From IMG/VR virus record IMGVR_UViG_3300045988_066620, positions 1 to 36,509 of that record: 36,509 nucleotides of DNA; one strand, 5' to 3'. Of this stretch, positions 2,928 to 29,816 are shown one piece after another (within the stretch, counting starts at the first letter, position 1; each line of letters opens with the position of its first letter). The position numbers and the translations under genes were made by a program. This DNA is from a virus. The notes beneath the pieces were generated by a model. That model did no database searches, was not told where the DNA came from, and saw only the letters and a program-made list of their open reading frames with translations.

Positions 2928-3413
2928 TCAAAAATCTGTCCTGCCTGGATTGTCCGTCCGCCTGCCGTTTGTGTGCGCTGCGGGAGCAGCATATATTTGT
3001 TTTTCTTTGTTTATCTTTGTTATCTTTGTTTCATTGTTGTCAGTTGTTTGTCGGTTGCTTGTCACTTGCTTGTCACTTGCTTGTCGGTTTGTTTGTCGCT
3101 TGTCTTGGTACATATCATAGTTTACTATCGTAAATACGCTATATTTGTTAGTTGCTTTGCTTGTCACTTCGTTTGTCGAAATTAGGTGACGAATTGCAGT
3201 TCTTACGTTGCGAACCGACAACCCTGTTTCTTTAGCTAGTGTGCCATAGCTTGCTACCCTCTGCCCCCTGTGAATAGCTTCGCCCTTGAAGCGTTTTTCC
3301 TCATAATTGGCGGTCAAAATTAAATGTTCAAAAACAATGCGCGTTGCAGGGTCTTTATACCACTCCCAGTTCACTATTTTTCTATGTAAAACTATAAATC
3401 CATTTTCCAACAT
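2928..3413 (-). CDS. Replisome organizer / replication initiator-like winged-HTH protein
   Basis: N-terminal pattern GFIVLHRKIVNWEWYKD...HRGQRVASYGTLAKETGLSVRNVRTAIRHL is typical of phage replisome-organizer / DnaD-like N-domains. It sits directly upstream of the primase-helicase, and its 3' part carries DNA-level iterons. Confidence 0.6.
   Translation of the reverse strand: MLENGFIVLHRKIVNWEWYKDPATRIVFEHLILTANYEEKRFKGEAIHRGQRVASYGTLAKETGLSVRNVRTAIRHLISTNEVTSKATNKYSVFTIVNYDMYQDKRQTNRQASDKQVTSNRQTTDNNETKITKINKEKQIYAAPAAHTNGRRTDNPGRTDF
3003..3107. repeat. About 10 tandem 9-12-nt iterons (TTGYTTGTCNN on plus = NNGACAARCAA on minus) followed by an AT-rich tract; candidate origin of replication
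   Basis: The sequence reads tctttgttta tctttgtta tctttgtttca ttgttgtcag ttgtttgtcgg ttgcttgtcac ttgcttgtcac ttgcttgtcgg tttgtttgtcgc ttgtcttgg. The ~11-nt period is not a multiple of 3, so the encoded peptide is not repetitive. Confidence 0.55.
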
Positions 3414-6133: not shown

Positions 6134-6481
6134 TTAGTCACTCTGCTCGCCTCTCAGCCTCTCGATATTTTTCTTTAAGGCTACGATATATCCCGTCAGA
6201 TACCCGTTTGGGTAGTCATTAAGGGCTATTACTGTTATTGCCTTTAGCTCCTCTTGACAAATGTCAAGAAGTGTGCTATCGTTAAGGCGTATGTTATCGG
6301 TATCTTTTGATACCTCCGAGCTTGTGCCTGTTGCCGCAGGTGCAGGCTCGTTTTTTATGCATTCAAGAACATTCTTCATAAAATCAGTAATGCAATTACC
6401 TCTATTTATAAACGGACAAGCTCCACAGTTGCCTGCTATACAGCATTCTGCTGCAAGAATTATTTCATCTCTCGTTAGCAT
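6134..6481 (-). CDS. Hypothetical Cys-rich protein (115 aa from MLTRDE...)
   Basis: ATG at 6481 with a GGAGG 7 nt upstream. Overlaps the end of the upstream gene by 7 nt. Confidence 0.7.
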   Translation of the reverse strand: MLTRDEIILAAECCIAGNCGACPFINRGNCITDFMKNVLECIKNEPAPAATGTSSEVSKDTDNIRLNDSTLLDICQEELKAITVIALNDYPNGYLTGYIVALKKNIERLRGEQSD

Positions 6482-7080
6482 TCTTCTTCCTCCCACTCAA
6501 ATCTTCCCTTGCCGCTGTTTCTCCATTGACCGATTCCTCTCAGCCTGCCGTAATCCAACCACTCACGCACGGCTGTTTCCATATCGTCTTTTAATATAAT
6601 GATTGTGAATTCAACCGTCGCTCCTGCAGGCACTGTTTCAGAGTGCGCCAGTGCAACACGTTCGCCCTGCGGTGTGCTTGCTCTGAGCGGTCTCTGACAC
6701 TCGCCCATACCGCCCTTGAATTCGTATGGTATTTTTCTTTCCTCAATGAAAACAAGTCCGTCAATCTCTTTCTTGTACGCTTTGATTTTTGAACTAGCCG
6801 TGCCTGATACCTTTTTCAGAACACCGCAAGCGTCCTTGAAAAATCCCTTGACCTGATAATCCCACAAGAATGGTGTGCCGTCTTCCAGTGTCGGGAATAT
6901 CGTCATAGATTTTTCGACCACTTCCGCTACACCAAGTGCGGCTATCTCTTCTTCACGGCTCTTTGCGTCGGGTGCTTTTGACGCTATGTATTCGTCGTGG
7001 ATTGTGGTTGTTGCGTTTGCCGTTCCCAGAATTTCTTCCGTGAATGTTAGTTTTACTTTGATTTTTTTCATGTTTTCCAT
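6475..7080 (-). CDS. Hypothetical early protein (201 aa), function unknown; has a RAMP-like C-terminal glycine-rich loop
   Basis: GGAGG RBS 9 nt upstream of the ATG at 7080. N-terminal beta-strand KIKVKLTF, then YQVKGFFKDA, and a C-terminal GIGQWRNSGKGRF followed by an acidic end. Confidence 0.8.
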   Translation of the reverse strand: MENMKKIKVKLTFTEEILGTANATTTIHDEYIASKAPDAKSREEEIAALGVAEVVEKSMTIFPTLEDGTPFLWDYQVKGFFKDACGVLKKVSGTASSKIKAYKKEIDGLVFIEERKIPYEFKGGMGECQRPLRASTPQGERVALAHSETVPAGATVEFTIIILKDDMETAVREWLDYGRLRGIGQWRNSGKGRFEWEEEEC

Positions 7081-7116
7081 TTTTTTGACCTCCGTTAAAT
7101 GTTAAAATTTTTTCCT

Positions 7117-7518
7117 TTGCGTGACAAATCTTTGCTAGGCCCTTGCGCCTCTATGCTTCGCAATGCCATAGCTACGCAATCATTTGCCAGGCCATTGCGT
7201 TTCATCGAATTGCGTTTCCACGAATTGCATTTCCTTTGCATGGCACCGCCAATCTGAGCCCTGCTATGCCTTTGCCTCTCGTTGCGTGTCAAAACTTTGC
7301 CTCACCTTTGCTTATCGAAACTCAGTTTAGCTTCGCCTTTGCCTATCAAAACGGTGCTGTGCATACCTAGCCGTTGCGAATCTATGTCAATCAATGCTGT
7401 GCCGTTGCTTATCGACGCTAGGCCGTTGCGTTGCTGTCCAAATCAACACCTTCGCACTTCGCAGCCGTTCACAGGTTCGCTTTGCCGTAGCTTATGCTAT
7501 CCAGAGCTAAGCCATTGC
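7117..7518 (+). repeat. ORF-free array: 19 same-strand TTGC cores, including 8 copies of GCCNTTGC and three tandem 15-mers (7194..7238)
   Basis: Counted by eye. GCCNTTGC starts at 7139, 7191, 7268, 7335, 7370, 7401, 7422 and 7511. Only two inverted copies (GCAAT at ~7160 and ~7176). Confidence 0.8.
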
Positions 7519-7521
7519 CAC

Positions 7522-7650
7522 TCAGTGCCATTCATCGCTGCATTCATGCTCCCATTTGTGCTGGTCTATGATACATGCTATGAATAATATCACAGCGTAG
7601 AAAACCGCCAGAACCACGATTGTTGCGCCAATTATTGCGGCTATAAACAT
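7522..7650 (-). CDS. Possible small membrane peptide (42 aa, MFIAAIIGATIVVLAVFYAVILFIACII...)
   Basis: Hand-translated; one clear hydrophobic helix. The GAGGG is only ~1 nt from the ATG, so initiation is uncertain. Confidence 0.4.
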   Translation of the reverse strand: MFIAAIIGATIVVLAVFYAVILFIACIIDQHKWEHECSDEWH

Positions 7651-7663
7651 ACCCTCTGACACT

Positions 7664-7873
7664 TTACCACTTACCTTTCGTCTGTATCTCGACCTTGACT
7701 ATGGGTCTTGCAGTTTCCTTCATTGCCTTCTCCAGTTCCTCACGGATTGCGGTTTCGGCGGTTTCTTTAACATTTCGATATAGTCCATATACCGCCAGTG
7801 CGAATAGCGCCACACACAGTGCTATTGCAGCCACGAATCTGATGATCTCCAGCGTTGCTATCATCTCGTTCAT
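7664..7873 (-). CDS. Small single-pass membrane protein (69 aa from MNEMIATLE...)
   Basis: ATG at 7873 forms an ATGA overlap with the stop of the upstream HTH gene. Hydrophobic helix IIRFVAAIALCVALFALAVYGL. Confidence 0.65.
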   Translation of the reverse strand: MNEMIATLEIIRFVAAIALCVALFALAVYGLYRNVKETAETAIREELEKAMKETARPIVKVEIQTKGKW

Positions 7874-8118
7874 CTTCTTCCACTCCTTTCCTTGCAATAC
7901 TCTGCAAAGATTTCTTCGGGGTTCGCCCCGATTATCTTGCAGTACGTTACGATTTGTTCAGCATTCATGGTGCCGAACTGCCGTTCCCACCTGCTTACGG
8001 CTGTCTGTGTCATGCTCAGCCGTTTTGCAATTTTTGCCTGCGTGATATCATTATTGGTTCTGATAGACCTCAGCCTTTTTGATATCACGTCATTGGCGGT
8101 CGTTTTTTTCGCTGGCAT
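7870..8118 (-). CDS. XRE-family helix-turn-helix protein (82 aa)
   Basis: RLRSIRTNNDITQAKIAKRLSMTQTAVSRWE HTH pattern. ATG at 8118 is preceded by GGAGGTG. Confidence 0.8.
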   Translation of the reverse strand: MPAKKTTANDVISKRLRSIRTNNDITQAKIAKRLSMTQTAVSRWERQFGTMNAEQIVTYCKIIGANPEEIFAEYCKERSGRR

Positions 8119-8380: not shown

Positions 8381-8490
8381 ATACTCGTTTTGAGTACATT
8401 ATCATTATATACTCATTTTGGGAATTTGTCAACCCCAAATTGGGTACAAATATGTACAAATTTGAGATTATATTTTTGTACAAAATACTC
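8381..8490. promoter_or_regulatory. Operator cluster: three ATACTCRTTTTG sites (8381, 8409, 8485) and three GTACAAA sites (8444, 8454, 8478)
   Basis: Includes the palindromes TACTCgttttGAGTA (8382..8396), GTACAaataTGTAC and TTTTGTACAAAA. Confidence 0.6.
8404..8432 (-). promoter_or_regulatory. Early-left promoter: TTGACA - 17 nt - TATAAT
   Basis: The minus strand reads TTGACAaattcccaaaatgagtaTATAAT (plus-strand tgtcaa at 8427..8432, attata at 8404..8409). Confidence 0.7.
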
Positions 8491-8518: not shown

Positions 8519-8547
8519 TTGACAAATTCCCATAATGGGTATATAAT
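8519..8547 (+). promoter_or_regulatory. Repressor-gene promoter: TTGACA - 17 nt - TATAAT
   Basis: TTGACAaattcccataatgggtaTATAAT. It is almost identical (27/29) to the divergent early-left promoter. Confidence 0.7.
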
Positions 8548-9258: not shown

Positions 9259-9459
9259 TTATTTGTTAAAACTGAACAAATCGTCAAGACCGCATTTTAG
9301 CGATTTTGCCAATAGCACAGCCGTTGAAATGCGTGGGTCAACGTTATAGCGTTCTATCTGGTCAATTTCAGAAAAACTAACGCCTGACAGTTCGGATAGC
9401 TGGCGCAGTGTCAAACGTTGTGTGCGACGTATATCACGCAGATGTGTTTCGTATATCAT
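9259..9459 (-). CDS. XRE-family HTH protein (66 aa)
   Basis: LRDIRRTQRLTLRQLSELSGVSFSEIDQIE HTH pattern. AGAGGTG RBS 8 nt upstream. Confidence 0.75.
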   Translation of the reverse strand: MIYETHLRDIRRTQRLTLRQLSELSGVSFSEIDQIERYNVDPRISTAVLLAKSLKCGLDDLFSFNK

Positions 9460-9460
9460 A

Positions 9461-9506
9461 TATAATCACCTCTGTGGCTAGTATGCCCACAGGAGCCGTG
9501 ATTATA
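9461..9506. promoter_or_regulatory. 46-bp imperfect palindrome between divergent genes (candidate operator)
   Basis: TATAATCAC (9461..9469) and GTGATTATA (9498..9506) form a perfect 9-bp inverted repeat. Inner arms are CTCTGTGG / CCACAGGAG. It covers the RBS of the 66-aa HTH gene. Confidence 0.5.
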
Positions 9507-9524
9507 AGAAAAGGGGTAGAAAAC

Positions 9525-10382
9525 ATGGGATTCCGTTTTAGAAAATCAATCAAACTTGGCGGCGGTGCAAGATTAAACATCGGCAAAAAATCTGTCGGCA
9601 TGAGTGTCGGCGGAAAGGGCGCACGATACAGTGTCAACAGTTCAGGACGGCGCACAAAGTCTGTCGGTATACCAGGCACAGGGCTGTCATATGTATCAAC
9701 ATCTGGCGGCAGGAAATCGTCCAGCCGTAGGTCTCACGGCCGCAAAGCAAGTGGCACGTCAAAGGGCGGTTGCCTGCTGGTAATAATCATTTTCTGTGCT
9801 ATATCAGTTATAGTCTACGGAATAGCGCACCTATTCGGCTATAGGCGGCCGACAAAGGTTGAATGGACTAATGACAACTATTCTATCGCACTGAACGATT
9901 ATAATCGTGACTATAGCCACATAATCTATTTGCGAATCACAGGTGAAACCGACGCAGAGGGCGTTGATCCGAAAGATATAAAAATTGAAATCAGCAATCC
10001 TGACGTTTGTCAGTTAGAATATGATGATAGCGGTGCATATGTCACCTATGATGTGAAACCCCTGAAAGACGGCTTTGCGGACGTGACCGCCACATATGAC
10101 GGTGTGACATCAGACCCTATCACAATCACAGTGGATATGGGTGAAAAAGTCACTACTACCACCACGACAACAACTACTACCACGACGACGACAACCACCA
10201 CCGAAGCAATCCCTGCGACAACTACCACGCAGGACCCAGCAGAAACAATTGTATATATCACGGCTTCGGGCGACAAGTATCATAACAAATACTGCAGATA
10301 CTATGATGATACCTGCACACCAATGACCCTGCAGGACGCCCAGAACGCAGGCTACAAGCCTTGCAAGGTGTGCGGCGGATAA
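9525..10382 (+). CDS. DUF4236-domain membrane protein with an Ig-like domain, a poly-Thr linker and a C-terminal Cys/His metal-binding motif (285 aa)
   Basis: ATG at 9525 after AAGGGG. MGFRFRKSIKLGGGARLNIGKK... matches the DUF4236 pattern. TM helix CLLVIIIFCAISVIVYGIAHLF. 17 consecutive Thr codons at 10152..10202. C-terminal YITASGDKYHNKYCRYY...GYKPCKVCG. Confidence 0.75.
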   Translation: MGFRFRKSIKLGGGARLNIGKKSVGMSVGGKGARYSVNSSGRRTKSVGIPGTGLSYVSTSGGRKSSSRRSHGRKASGTSKGGCLLVIIIFCAISVIVYGIAHLFGYRRPTKVEWTNDNYSIALNDYNRDYSHIIYLRITGETDAEGVDPKDIKIEISNPDVCQLEYDDSGAYVTYDVKPLKDGFADVTATYDGVTSDPITITVDMGEKVTTTTTTTTTTTTTTTTTEAIPATTTTQDPAETIVYITASGDKYHNKYCRYYDDTCTPMTLQDAQNAGYKPCKVCGG

Positions 10383-27075: not shown

Positions 27076-27739
27076 TTTTATAACCCTCCTTTAGTTTGTC
27101 AAGCCTTGCCTGTGCTGTTATCTTTTTATCAGCACGCTCAGCTTTCATTTTTTCGATTACGTTTTGCGGTATGATATCGCAGTAGGCCGCCACAAGCTGT
27201 GACTTGACGTTCCTGCTTTCTGCGATTTCGTCTATCAACCCCAGTTCGACCGCTTCATCAGCCGTCAGCCATGTTTCCTTGTCCATGATTTCCAGTGCCT
27301 TTTCCTTTGTCATGCCTGACTTGGTTATGTAGGCATTTGCAATGGTCTCATTGGCTTTTTGCAGAACCTCTGACATTTTGTCCATGTCATGGTAATCACC
27401 TCTTGTCGCTGATGATACGTTATGCACCATGATCTGTGCCGTCGGTGATATATCTGACTTGCCTGCACACGCTATTACGCTTGCCGCACTTGCTGCAAGA
27501 CCGACAACGTGTATCTTGACATCACCTGAATATTCACGGATTGCCGAATAGATTTCGGAAGCCGCAAAAATATCACCACCACCAGAGTTGATGTAAACTT
27601 CCAACGGCTCGCCTTTTTCAGTTGCCGCAGTTATATCTTTTAAGACCCTCGCAGGGGAAGTAGCGTCAATTTCGAAAAGGTCATAGATCCATTGGTCATC
27701 ATTCGGAACGATTGTACCTTTGACGTTAATTTTCATCAT
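27053..27739 (-). CDS. ClpP-family prohead (head maturation) serine protease
   Basis: YINSGGGDIFAASEIYSAI...VVGLAASAASVIACAG...MVHNV matches the ClpP/S14 pattern. GGAGGTG precedes the tandem ATGs at 27739/27736. Confidence 0.85.
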   Translation of the reverse strand: MMKINVKGTIVPNDDQWIYDLFEIDATSPARVLKDITAATEKGEPLEVYINSGGGDIFAASEIYSAIREYSGDVKIHVVGLAASAASVIACAGKSDISPTAQIMVHNVSSATRGDYHDMDKMSEVLQKANETIANAYITKSGMTKEKALEIMDKETWLTADEAVELGLIDEIAESRNVKSQLVAAYCDIIPQNVIEKMKAERADKKITAQARLDKLKEGYKNDKTGNA

Positions 27740-28907
27740 TTTCACCTCCCTCACTGCTGTCTATCTTTGCCGTGTCTAGTCTGACATAATACTGATCGCC
27801 CGAAGGAATGTCAGCCAGATTGAACACGCTTCGGATTTCATTTGCGTTCATGATACCTCTGTCGAAGAACTGCACCAGATTCAACTTGGTTGACATTGAC
27901 GCAGTGCTCAGGTTGAACGCTTCAAAAACTATCTTGTTGCCATACCCTCTTTCGATACGGCTGAATAGTTTTCGTGTGAATTCGCCAGCCAGTTCCATTA
28001 CTACTGGTTCTATCTCCGATTCGTAGTAGGCGTTGTACTGGTCTTCGGTGTAGTTCGATTGCACGATATTTGCGTTTGTGTTAAACAGCGAATAAATTCT
28101 CTGCGTGGTTTTTTCCATGACCGATGAATTCGGTACATAGTCCTTTGCGTCAACTTGTTTTGCATCCGCCTTGCTGTCGACTGCCGCAACGCCTGTGCCG
28201 TTCTGAACGCTCATGAATTGCTCGCTAAATTCTTGCGCCTGCTTTTTCAAATCCTCAGGGCGCAGGGAGCTTGTAAACTTCAACAGCCAGCGAATAATTG
28301 ACGAATTTTTGATAGCCTTGACAATACCTTGGTCTGTAGTTGTTACAATTTCCATTAGTGGCGTCAGCGTTTCACTCAGCCGTTCGCCGAAGATATCGTC
28401 CTTATAAAAATCACTACGCAGATGAATGATGTCAGCATATGGAAACGTATATCTTTGCCCGTTGAAAAACGTGAATTTCAAATACAAATCATTGCCGATA
28501 TATACGCATTCTGCACTGTCTGCAGGGATAGGATATAGTTCAGTAGGATAGCCGTTGCCGTCACGGATAATCAGAATAAATGCGTTGTTGTTCAAACACA
28601 GCTGCGTTGCAATCTTTTCCAGCATTTTTTGTAGCGTCATGAACTCATTTGGCTCTTCCAGCAGCATTCGCATATATGGTTCAGGGTTTATCTCGATACT
28701 GCCGTCCCCCTTTTGGCTATATGATTTTCTGATATGTTTTGCGGTCAGTTTTCCAATAGCCTTGACTTTGGGGCGAATGCAGGCACGTACCAAATCTGAC
28801 CGATAAACATTGCCGTCCCAACTATAGTAGCCGTTGCCGATTTCCGACATCATCTTATATCGGGTCACTACCTGTGATCTGTTTTTAAAACGATTTATCA
28901 GACCCAT
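27726..28907 (-). CDS. Portal protein, HK97 family
   Basis: 393 aa, between terL (plus the methyltransferase insertion) and the protease. Typical portal length and order. Confidence 0.85.
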   Translation of the reverse strand: MGLINRFKNRSQVVTRYKMMSEIGNGYYSWDGNVYRSDLVRACIRPKVKAIGKLTAKHIRKSYSQKGDGSIEINPEPYMRMLLEEPNEFMTLQKMLEKIATQLCLNNNAFILIIRDGNGYPTELYPIPADSAECVYIGNDLYLKFTFFNGQRYTFPYADIIHLRSDFYKDDIFGERLSETLTPLMEIVTTTDQGIVKAIKNSSIIRWLLKFTSSLRPEDLKKQAQEFSEQFMSVQNGTGVAAVDSKADAKQVDAKDYVPNSSVMEKTTQRIYSLFNTNANIVQSNYTEDQYNAYYESEIEPVVMELAGEFTRKLFSRIERGYGNKIVFEAFNLSTASMSTKLNLVQFFDRGIMNANEIRSVFNLADIPSGDQYYVRLDTAKIDSSEGGENDEN

Positions 28908-28940
28908 TTTTTCACCCCTCTCTTTGTATAATTTTCAAAA

Positions 28941-29816
28941 TTATTTCTTGTTCAATTCTGCTATAATAGCCTTTTCTCTCTCGCTCAGTTGCCATCGTTC
29001 TGCTCGTTCTCGTTCTGCTCGTTCTCGTTCTGCTCGTTCTGCTCGTTCTCGTTCTGCTCGTTCTGCTCGTTCTCGTTCTGCTCGTTCTGCTCGTTCTCGT
29101 TCTGCTCGTTCTGCTCGTTCTCGTTCTGCTCGTTCTAAACACATGGCAGCGTCATCTGAAATGAGGTATCCCGACCCGAATATTGCTTTTCTTTGCAAAA
29201 GTTGAGTGTCAAGAGCACGAACACGAAGGCTTTCAGATTTTTTAATTTCAAAGTCAATGCCAGCCTTTGAAAGCCGATTGATTTTAGCCGCTGTTGCAAC
29301 ATTTTTCGGATATTCATACTTTGGCATTGTCTTAGTTTTCTCTTTCCTGCTAACATCATTACAGCTTTTCAAAATCTTGTAAAGGCGTGGGGCGGTACGA
29401 ACCCGAATGTCGCTATCATCAAGATTCGTTACAAACGACGTGCTAACAACTGCCCCATTTTCGTAGGTTACGGCTGCACCCACTGGAATTGCTGTACAGT
29501 GTTCTGTTGCTCCTGAAAATAGAGTGAGAGCAGGTGCAAACAGAAAAAATTTTATGTTTTTTTCGATATAAAAGCGTAAAATCTTGCTAAGAATGCTGAA
29601 TGGCGGATTGTCAACTACAATTTTACCTGTATAATCAAACGTTTCATAATCGCCGCCTGGATAAAAAGGTCTGCAAAATTCATCACAATTTATGCCATAT
29701 TCGTTTGCTACCCAATTTGCCACACAATCATATATCAATGGCGGCGTGTAACAATCGTCAGTAGTTTTCTTTGGCTTGAACTTTTCGACGAACTGTTCGT
29801 ATGTTTCACCTTTCAT
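28941..29816 (-). CDS. Orphan DNA N6-adenine methyltransferase-like protein (NPPF motif) with a C-terminal (ERA/ER)n repeat
   Basis: CYTPP near the N-terminus and the catalytic motif IV VVDNPPFS. Inserted between terL and portal. No nuclease partner. Confidence 0.65.
   Translation of the reverse strand: MKGETYEQFVEKFKPKKTTDDCYTPPLIYDCVANWVANEYGINCDEFCRPFYPGGDYETFDYTGKIVVDNPPFSILSKILRFYIEKNIKFFLFAPALTLFSGATEHCTAIPVGAAVTYENGAVVSTSFVTNLDDSDIRVRTAPRLYKILKSCNDVSRKEKTKTMPKYEYPKNVATAAKINRLSKAGIDFEIKKSESLRVRALDTQLLQRKAIFGSGYLISDDAAMCLERAERERAERAERERAERAERERAERAERERAERAERERAERERAERWQLSEREKAIIAELNKK
28996..29136. repeat. 141-bp compound in-frame tandem repeat (9-nt GAACGAGCA and 6-nt GAACGA units, giving 15- and 24-nt higher-order repeats)
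   Basis: On the coding strand it encodes ERAER (ERAERAER)x4 ERAER ERAER. All units are multiples of 3. Confidence 0.9.

Follow-up and report, generated by a model that had tools for sequence, protein, structure and literature searches.

Based on its repeat structure, its partner gene and its distribution among related phages, we consider it very probable that a tract without open reading frames (ORFs) in the viral record IMGVR_UViG_3300045988_066620 of IMG/VR, together with the gene for a 201-aa protein that lies directly downstream of it on the same strand, constitutes a VIPR (Viral Interference Programmable Repeat) module, that is, an array of guide RNA and a Cas7-like Vipr protein, carried by a temperate phage of gut Clostridia. 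The DNA analyzed, which we call the window, spans 36,509 nucleotides (nt) and is a segment of a phage genome with a lysogeny switch, replication genes and structural genes. The early operon is encoded on the minus strand, and the array is to be read as the reverse complement of the letters given for the window. An earlier note, made from the sequence alone, had described the tract as a cluster of short motifs in one orientation. The positions of the features discussed are collected in Table 1.

VIPR systems were described in two preprints of 2026 (bioRxiv 10.64898/2026.04.26.720920, 10.64898/2026.04.26.720927). Vipr is a phage-encoded, ancestral RAMP of ~20 kDa that is flanked by long intergenic regions; the vrRNAs consist of 9–16 YNNGG pentamers, which in some of the seven types take the variant forms NNNGG, YNNNG or NNNNG, the YNNNG variant being named in the methods of the preprint (bioRxiv 10.64898/2026.04.26.720920). 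The mechanism involves a filament and a triplex, with identified residues reading G1, G2 and Y3 (bioRxiv 10.64898/2026.04.26.720927). According to the two preprints, one protomer occupies each repeat, the GGY bases are sequestered by a loop rich in glycine (G-loop) together with the thumb, and the NN bases pair with double-stranded DNA (dsDNA), every third target base being skipped; the natural targets are competing phages, satellites and prophages. The types differ in array architecture and in accessory vap genes, and stand-alone vipr genes are also reported. The type II vrRNA ends in a conserved structured 3' tail, and other types have ribozymes or staggered boundaries. Best characterized among them are two type II systems, one from Escherichia phage SUSP1 and the other from a Pseudomonas fulva prophage (bioRxiv 10.64898/2026.04.26.720920, 10.64898/2026.04.26.720927). 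VIPR has been proposed as the ancestor of the CRISPR RAMP effectors.

First, the tract is an almost unbroken run of pentanucleotides on the minus strand. A cyclic five-state hidden Markov model (HMM) divides it into 82 consecutive units with the consensus C(64%)-[A/T]-[A/T]-N-G(91%), that is, C-W-W-N-G, most of which are 5 nt long and ~14 of which are 6 nt long. The dominant period is 5.1–5.2 nt, and the height of the Fourier peak was matched by none of 2000 dinucleotide shuffles. The base autocorrelation has its maxima at lags 5, 10, 15, 20/21 and 25/26, and strict runs of at least four NNNNG units hold 62 units of the array against 9 in shuffles. Both strands of the 36.5-kb window were examined, and the pentamer tract is unique within it. 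This periodicity had been overlooked when the element was said not to be any regular repeat. The three tandem 15-mers that had been pointed out are real, and Tandem Repeats Finder (TRF) reports them with a period of 15 and 2.7 copies at 7194–7234. We also agree that neither strand of the interval holds a credible ORF; in the HMM segmentation the final ~18 nt of the array overlap the 3' end of a 46-aa ORF. TAA, TAG and TGA stops are mixed in all six frames, by which stop-codon reassignment and a hidden ORF were ruled out. Folding of both strands gave z ~ +0.3 relative to shuffles and no structure signal, in keeping with the earlier statement that the region does not form hairpins, and an Rfam gathering scan of the whole window returned zero families (no known noncoding RNA, no ribozyme including hammerhead, no CRISPR-DR).

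The motif by which the cluster had been defined, GCCNTTGC, is a by-product of the pentamer pattern and not its basic repeat. Upon recounting, its eight plus-strand copies within 7139–7518 and the 19 copies of TTGC are all present as claimed. Over the whole window and both strands the motif occurs 22 times, compared with 5.75 +/- 2.3 times in dinucleotide shuffles, none of 100 of which reached 22; thus, its density exceeds that of the shuffled controls for which the earlier note had called. TTGC occurs 19 times on the plus strand of 7081–7521 against two occurrences of GCAA, which makes the interval denser in TTGC than any other 440-nt stretch of the window. The expectation of ~1.6 copies given previously was too low, since the 340 copies on the whole plus strand (36.5 kb) predict ~4 in the interval, and the enrichment is ~4.6-fold and not 12-fold. 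The minus strand holds most of the genes, in which GCAA is common, hence this high background.

Every 4–7 units the pentamer run is interrupted by a 6-nt unit, C-A-A-N-G-G, which accounts for 9 of the ~14 six-nt units. With the preceding G and the following C it reads GCAANGGC, the reverse complement of GCCNTTGC, and the motif therefore represents this unit plus its flanks. The hexamer is a punctuation mark within the pentamer lattice. The spacing of 21–89 bp that had been taken as irregular is in fact phased as 5n+1 or 5n+2. Across 108 arrays, the intervals between successive copies of GCAANGG are 21, 26, 31 or 36 nt, a 5n+1 series, in 58–70% of cases. C-A-A-N-G-G is the only unit type that keeps the full GGY, and we suggest that it acts as a registry anchor or as a vrRNA boundary. 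A repeat search additionally recovered an 18-nt semi-conserved element centered on the hexamer (family D1), with five copies of 78–100% identity that lie 66–129 nt apart.

Second, the protein encoded next to the array has the predicted fold of an RNA-binding Cas7-type protein. Its AlphaFold2 (AF2) model, built from 34 homologs, reaches a pLDDT of 78 and a pTM of 0.71 and comprises β1 (5–13), a helical insertion, a long β-hairpin (126–150), an α-helix (165–181), a G-loop (182–193) and a β-strand (194–198). The hairpin at about 126–150 is predicted to be a thumb on an RRM core, and the C-terminal sequence G182-I-G-Q-W-R-N-S-G-K-G-R-F194 resembles the glycine-rich loop of RAMPs. In a Foldseek search of the PDB, the top matches of the model were exclusively Cas7-type RAMPs, namely type VII Cas7, Csm3 and Cas7-11 (best E-value 3e-8, probability 1.0, TM ~0.55), and the best viral match in BFVD, 57% identical, carries the depositor's name 'Cas system-associated RAMP superfamily protein'. 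At the level of sequence there were weak matches to the Csm4 G-loop and, marginally, to PADLOC Cas7_IIId, and Pfam and PHROGs yielded no match. The model thus predicts a small stand-alone RAMP in which a single RRM core is joined by a thumb and a glycine-rich loop, and the choice of this gene product as the binding partner to be tested, which the earlier note had made, was a sound one. The family is large: clustered at 90% it has more than 7,800 matching sequences, and at 50% identity it forms 1,943 clusters. A tblastn search of GenBank phages found just four unannotated gut phage records and did not link the protein to SUSP1.

Profile comparison supports homology of the family to an experimentally validated Vipr, although the sequence evidence by itself is not decisive. 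The hhalign alignment with SUSP1 Vipr is full-length and collinear, with an E-value of 0.01 for profile against sequence; family against family, the E-value is 0.0019 with 26 and 30 sequences and 4e-5 (probability 70%, again full-length) with 90 and 120 sequences. Cross HMM matches between the families reach E ~1e-4 in small databases. Both families share the motif G-x-G-[D/Q]-W-R-x(2,3)-G-R-F, in which W178 and R179 of SUSP1, the readers of G2 and Y3, align with the invariant W186 and R187. H17 and D177 of SUSP1, which read G1, align with T20 and Q185, and these residues would fit the loss of the first G in most units, that is, YNNNG and not YNNGG. SUSP1 (KT454805; L127 in our set) also served as a positive control: its vipr (28474–29061) and vap1 (28031–28471) are flanked by YNNGG tracts that the same periodicity statistic detects. 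A period-5 Fourier scan finds the vrRNA arrays of SUSP1 and could therefore serve as a general detector. The SUSP1 locus is annotated only as 'hypothetical protein' genes with unannotated flanks of 450–530 bp (27500–28030 and 29062–29510).

Third, gene and array travel together. We gathered 126 loci that encode relatives of the protein (46 from GTDB genomes and 80 from IMG/VR; 0.94 Mb), 123 of which could be evaluated. A same-strand array lies directly beside the gene in 120 of these 123 loci and is missing from three; according to the HMM it is upstream of the gene in 77 loci, downstream in 38 and on both sides in two. Only 15 other array segments were called in the 0.94 Mb, of which 12 are second arrays beyond the first or detached halves, the latter arising where an inserted small ORF splits an array, and the remaining three are apart from the gene. 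The pair is kept at 34–51% protein identity in metagenome-assembled genomes (MAGs) assigned to Cloacimonadota, Dissulfurispiraceae, Pirellulales and Sedimentisphaerales (Planctomycetes). No other neighboring gene is consistently adjacent across 65 diverse loci, and none of the other early genes of the window was found in the diverse loci. The diverse arrays share the same unit composition, a figure that is partly circular, the window having served to train the HMM; the Fourier and regular-expression tests do not depend on that model. Arrays placed downstream of the gene are often followed by a terminator-like hairpin, as judged by eye.

Fourth, the arrays vary in the manner of a guide. Among 44 arrays from phages whose proteins are 95–100% identical, the number of units ranges from 62 to 124 through block insertions and deletions. 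The G that ends each unit has an entropy of 0.11 and is invariant in 68% of columns, compared with entropies of 0.35–0.54 at positions 1–4; position 1 (Y) is just moderately conserved, unlike in SUSP1. The constant CAANG type makes up ~16–20% of units. Three related loci (L056, L057 and L106) and ~8 other close relatives carry an ORF of ~75 aa with its own Shine-Dalgarno sequence inside the array, 490–820 nt upstream of vipr. Since this ORF splits the arrays into two tracts, the arrays tolerate the insertion of a gene between units.

The locus therefore resembles VIPR in its phage or prophage origin, in its ~20-kDa predicted single-RRM RAMP with a thumb and a G-loop (...G-x-G-x-W-R...G-R-F), in its long same-strand ORF-free flank of tandem pentamers with conserved junction bases and variable inner bases, in the placement of the array on either side of the gene, and in the lack of cas genes and of a CRISPR array. 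In particular, the 201-aa protein is a small stand-alone RAMP as judged by AF2 and Foldseek; the flank holds far more than four tandem pentamers on the same strand (82 C-N-N-N-G units in the window, with arrays in 120/123 related loci); the 44 related arrays keep one motif position and vary the inner ones; and the setting is viral or proviral and outside a CRISPR-cas locus, the relatives being IMG/VR contigs and prophages. The array would be transcribed from the early-left promoter within the operon and processed, and each pentamer unit would be bound by one copy of the 201-aa Vipr, giving a ribonucleoprotein filament of helical form. At the unit junctions, the conserved G and C would be held by the G-loop and the thumb, leaving the variable bases exposed for pairing, and, by analogy with SUSP1 and P. 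fulva, the filament would use a gapped code to recognize the dsDNA of competing phages, satellites or prophages and would silence transcription.

The locus also departs from the characterized systems. Its unit is C-N-N-N-G instead of YNNGG; the G1-reader positions are T20/Q185 instead of the H17/D177 of SUSP1; a single uninterrupted tract of ~82 units (62–124 in relatives) takes the place of several vrRNAs of 9–16 units with pseudoknotted tails; C-A-A-N-G-G hexamers punctuate the tract at 5n+1 spacing; no vap gene is conserved; and the module forms part of the early operon in a temperate, siphovirus-like phage of gut Clostridia. As the preprint admits vipr genes that stand alone and arrays of other design, we file the locus as a member of the YNNNG kind of VIPR.

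Several results weigh against this assignment. Neither a conserved 3' tail or pseudoknot nor a ribozyme nor a terminator between units was found in the array, and a repeated tail-like hairpin was not found either; Rfam, folding and the repeat search revealed neither a structured 3' tail nor ribozyme separators, although the preprints allow other architectures. The derivation of ~100-nt vrRNAs from a tract of 425 nt accordingly lacks an evident boundary signal. No adjacent vap gene is conserved across the 65 diverse loci, and the sequence homology to the validated Vipr, while supportive, is moderate (hhalign probability 14–70%). Furthermore, natural targets did not emerge from the searches. In exact and mismatch-tolerant gapped searches, guides from the 108 arrays, read by the published xNN rule and by alternative rules, matched ~1.5 Mb of related phage DNA no more often than unit-shuffled controls did, and three exact 20-base gapped scans of IMG/VR returned zero matches. 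When exact gapped 18-mers from the same 108 arrays were run under 15 read-out rules against ~1 Mb of related loci, they did not exceed the unit-shuffled controls, and neither did all 4,798 guides against the old and new loci. A mismatch-tolerant scan with the 73 ten-unit windows of the array in the window, under six rules, gave no more than a slight excess, for the published xNN rule. Under the 'NN, skip one' rule, units 49–58 of the array match 19 of the 20 informative bases of a RusA-like resolvase gene in the related locus L018 and in IMG/VR relatives, the one complex match to stand out. It keeps the reading frame, the skipped base falling on the wobble position, and covers the conserved motif KDNISSFGRK; the window phage has no RusA homolog. 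We regard this single case as anecdotal and possibly due to chance; it is not significant against shuffles, always has one mismatch and spans a putative punctuation element.

A more specific proposal, which we advance only tentatively and hold to be less probable than its negation, is that the clade (~1,900 clusters at 50% identity) has an uncharacterized VIPR architecture, defined by a continuous, filament-length tract of 60–120 C-N-N-N-G units, CAANGG anchors every 4–7 units, the lack of a tail and of vap, and G1 readers changed from H to T and from D to Q. If this were true, the registry or pairing code might be other than xNN, for example with short guides between anchors or a third informative base, and processing might occur in a new manner.

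The main residual alternative, which we consider unlikely, is that the Vipr-like protein coats the pentamer RNA in a role other than the guided DNA silencing of competitors. The complex might act as decoy or sponge toward the type I/III/IV CRISPR RAMPs of the host (resembling an RNA anti-CRISPR), regulate the phage's own early operon in cis, or protect or scaffold RNA. The failure of the searches to find natural targets is in favor of such a role, as are the lack of a vap partner, the one continuous tract of 62–124 units without a tail, unlike the ~100-nt vrRNAs of SUSP1, and the ~16–20% of units that are constant CAANG and carry little coding information. However, the variable positions change fast between near-identical phages while the G is held, as is predicted for a guide and not for a mimic of a fixed host repeat, and there is no similarity to any Rfam CRISPR repeat family. 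In addition, profile comparison supports full-length homology between the protein and a Vipr for which guided DNA binding was demonstrated by experiment (bioRxiv 10.64898/2026.04.26.720920, 10.64898/2026.04.26.720927). Of the roles listed in the earlier note, a repeat-rich regulatory or sponge RNA of the early-left operon came closest: the direction toward a repeat RNA holds, but the RNA is likely a guide bound by a Cas7-like protein and not a sponge.

That note had put first an array on which proteins load at the level of DNA, a class that would take in iterons (or a second origin), a centromere, and arrays serving as operator or for terminase titration. Short motifs of one orientation are indeed clustered here in non-coding DNA, as in lambda-type iteron origins with their direct repeats in the phage early region, and the iterons of the phage initiator also hold GCAA on the minus strand. 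We nevertheless judge this explanation very unlikely. The phage already has a textbook lambda-O-type origin at 2992–3107, with iterons of 11-bp period inside the initiator gene and an A/T-rich tract; the array has no A/T-rich tract, and its period is 5 nt and not ~10.5 or 11. Moreover, the array shares the strand of the RAMP gene in 120/123 loci, on either side of it, whereas the surrounding replication, partition and regulator genes differ, and its motif is kept from phylum to phylum, in contrast to iterons, which change together with their initiator.

The proposal of Chi-like signals that shield DNA ends from AddAB/RecBCD in an orientation-dependent manner could draw on the single-orientation bias (19 vs 2) and on the recombination genes (Sak4, SSB-like, ERCC4) downstream in the operon, but the motif is degenerate and belongs to an unbroken lattice of pentamers, this lattice occurs in hosts of at least five phyla whose Chi would differ, the array accompanies one protein of RNA-binding fold across unrelated phages and phyla, and 8 of the 22 copies lie within ~400 bp without over-representation elsewhere in the phage, whereas Chi is normally dispersed; we give this proposal almost no weight. 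Hardly any weight attaches either to a decayed gene or functionless compositional oddity, which the lack of an ORF and of an RNA-fold signal might suggest: the arrays are stop-rich in every frame yet keep the unit-final G in more than 100 arrays of several phyla, and an intact ORF across the interval, which the earlier note had named as the sign of a decayed gene, is carried by none of the related loci. The comparative data effectively refute the decayed-gene explanation, and since the lattice is conserved across phyla, both Chi-like signals and gene decay are excluded.

The protein shares its predicted fold with the backbone of class 1 CRISPR-Cas effectors (Cas7, Csm3, Cmr4 and type VII Cas7 on the CRISPR RNA), which supplied the top Foldseek matches, and presumably shares their binding mode, with one protomer per short RNA segment, a base-flipping thumb and an RNA-contacting G-loop. 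In contrast to those effectors, the RNA period is 5 nt and not 6; a repeat-spacer array is lacking, as are Cas5, Cas6, a large subunit and adaptation genes; and every unit would contribute guide information through its variable bases, instead of a contiguous spacer holding it. TRF, the repeat search and Rfam revealed no CRISPR-like repeat or CRISPR-DR family and no array of 24–48-nt direct repeats with spacers and cas genes, the neighbors being phage regulatory and replication genes; thus, the earlier statement that the cluster is not a CRISPR array stands. Type III toxin–antitoxin systems (ToxIN, CptIN, TenpIN) likewise place a tandem-repeat noncoding RNA directly upstream of, and co-transcribed with, a gene for a protein of ~170–200 aa in phage-related DNA, but ToxI-type repeats are 34–45 nt long, near-identical and few, whereas those of the array are 5 nt and highly variable, and the partner is an endoribonuclease of a different fold and not a RAMP; Pfam and PADLOC found no match to ToxN, CptN or AbiE in the 201-aa protein. 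CsrB/RsmZ sponges are noncoding RNAs with many irregularly spaced copies of a short purine-rich motif. Their A-N-GGA, however, sits in hairpin loops of a structured RNA, whereas the array has no fold signal, does not conserve GGA, follows a strictly pentameric lattice and is encoded next to its partner, which has a RAMP fold. The ideas of a type III toxin–antitoxin system, a CsrA sponge, a Spo0A/DnaA-box cluster and primase sites were all dropped after the 5-nt lattice and the RAMP fold had been recognized.

Table 1. Positions and strands of the features discussed, in coordinates of the window unless a related locus is named.
Feature	Position	Strand	Basis
Putative vrRNA array	7115..7539	-	cyclic-HMM segmentation, period-5 Fourier peak, strict-run count
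vipr-like gene, predicted 201-aa single-RRM RAMP (Cas7 fold)	6475..7080	-	AF2, Foldseek, BFVD, hhalign
Three 15-mers, each of three pentamers (AAACG CAATT CGNTG)	7194..7238	-	TRF period 15, HMM segmentation
18-nt element copy 1 (GAGGCGCAAGGGCCTAGC, minus strand)	7134..7151	-	repeat family D1
18-nt element copy 2 (GAGAGGCAAAGGCATAGC)	7263..7280	-	repeat family D1
18-nt element copy 3 (GATAGGCAAAGGCGAAGC)	7330..7347	-	repeat family D1
18-nt element copy 4 (GATAAGCAACGGCACAGC)	7396..7413	-	repeat family D1
18-nt element copy 5 (GAGTGGCAATGGCTTAGC)	7506..7523	-	repeat family D1
Early-left promoter TTGACA-17-TATAAT, 12/12 matches	8404..8432	-	consensus scan
Shine-Dalgarno GGAGG, 8 nt before vipr ATG; array end ~20 nt upstream	7089..7093	-	read from sequence
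RusA-like match site	L018 7719-7748 (gene 7509-7880); also L128, L132, L136, L173, L180 (IMG/VR relatives)		

The early operon begins with a promoter of perfect sigma-70 consensus and continues with two helix-turn-helix (HTH) genes, two small membrane genes, the ORF-free tract, the 201-aa gene and a 115-aa gene; farther downstream are Sak4, a gene similar to that of the single-stranded DNA-binding protein (SSB-like), an ERCC4 nuclease, a DnaD/lambda-O-like initiator and a primase-helicase. We find no strong minus-strand terminator-like site between the early-left promoter and the array, and for this reason we infer that both the HTH and the small membrane genes are probably transcribed from this promoter, along with the array and vipr. 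A second promoter with the same architecture (TTGACA-17-TATAAT, 12/12) lies at 8519–8547 on the plus strand, divergent from the first. Two divergent promoters between oppositely oriented HTH genes likely represent the lysis/lysogeny switch. The phage is temperate and siphovirus-like, with a host among gut Clostridia, probably Ruminococcus.

The 115-aa cysteine-rich gene (6134–6481, minus strand) has an ATG that overlaps the stop codon of vipr (ATGCTAA), which suggests that it is translationally coupled to vipr. Its homologs occur in Ruminococcus prophages without vipr, and for this reason it is probably not a dedicated VIPR accessory and was rejected as a vap candidate; the names of the homologs hint that the host is a Ruminococcus. 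Its AF2 model (pLDDT 53) is uninformative and too poor for a structure search.

Direct repeats with an 11-bp period (GACAAGCAAGT on the minus strand, 5–6 copies), followed by an A/T-rich tract, occupy 2992–3107. They sit in the C-terminal part of the DnaD/lambda-O-like initiator gene (2928–3413, minus strand), and this region is the probable replication origin of the phage, of iteron type. Two further repeats lie within genes of the window. A perfect 24-bp tandem repeat at 29009–29136 (5.3 copies, 100% identity) falls inside a 291-aa ORF (28941–29816, minus strand) and produces an in-frame protein repeat of eight residues. At 10152–10202, a run of 17 threonines is encoded in a 324-aa protein (ORF 9408–10382, plus strand) that has a predicted membrane segment and a C-terminal cysteine-rich motif and lies beside the prophage's integrase/repressor side.

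RNA-guided DNA recognition by VIPR has only lately been described, and here the array was detectable to a reader of the raw sequence alone. In annotation, both the ORF-free flank and the 201-aa 'hypothetical protein' can now be given a label, and the flank should not be taken for an origin, a pseudogene or an assembly oddity. The element is in all likelihood a further member of the VIPR kind, and its peculiarities, namely the punctuation, the continuity over ~82 units, the lack of a tail and of vap and the altered G1 readers, may amount to an uncharacterized variant. The clade offers a natural mechanistic comparison, in which a YNNNG lattice and hexamer punctuation are accompanied by substitutions at precisely those two positions that in SUSP1 read the first G; this makes a specific prediction of structure and function testable. 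Temperate phages of human and animal gut Clostridia carry the partner family in abundance, and it also occurs in MAGs assigned to other phyla. Given this abundance in phages of gut Clostridia, VIPR-type interference of phage against phage may be common in the gut virome.

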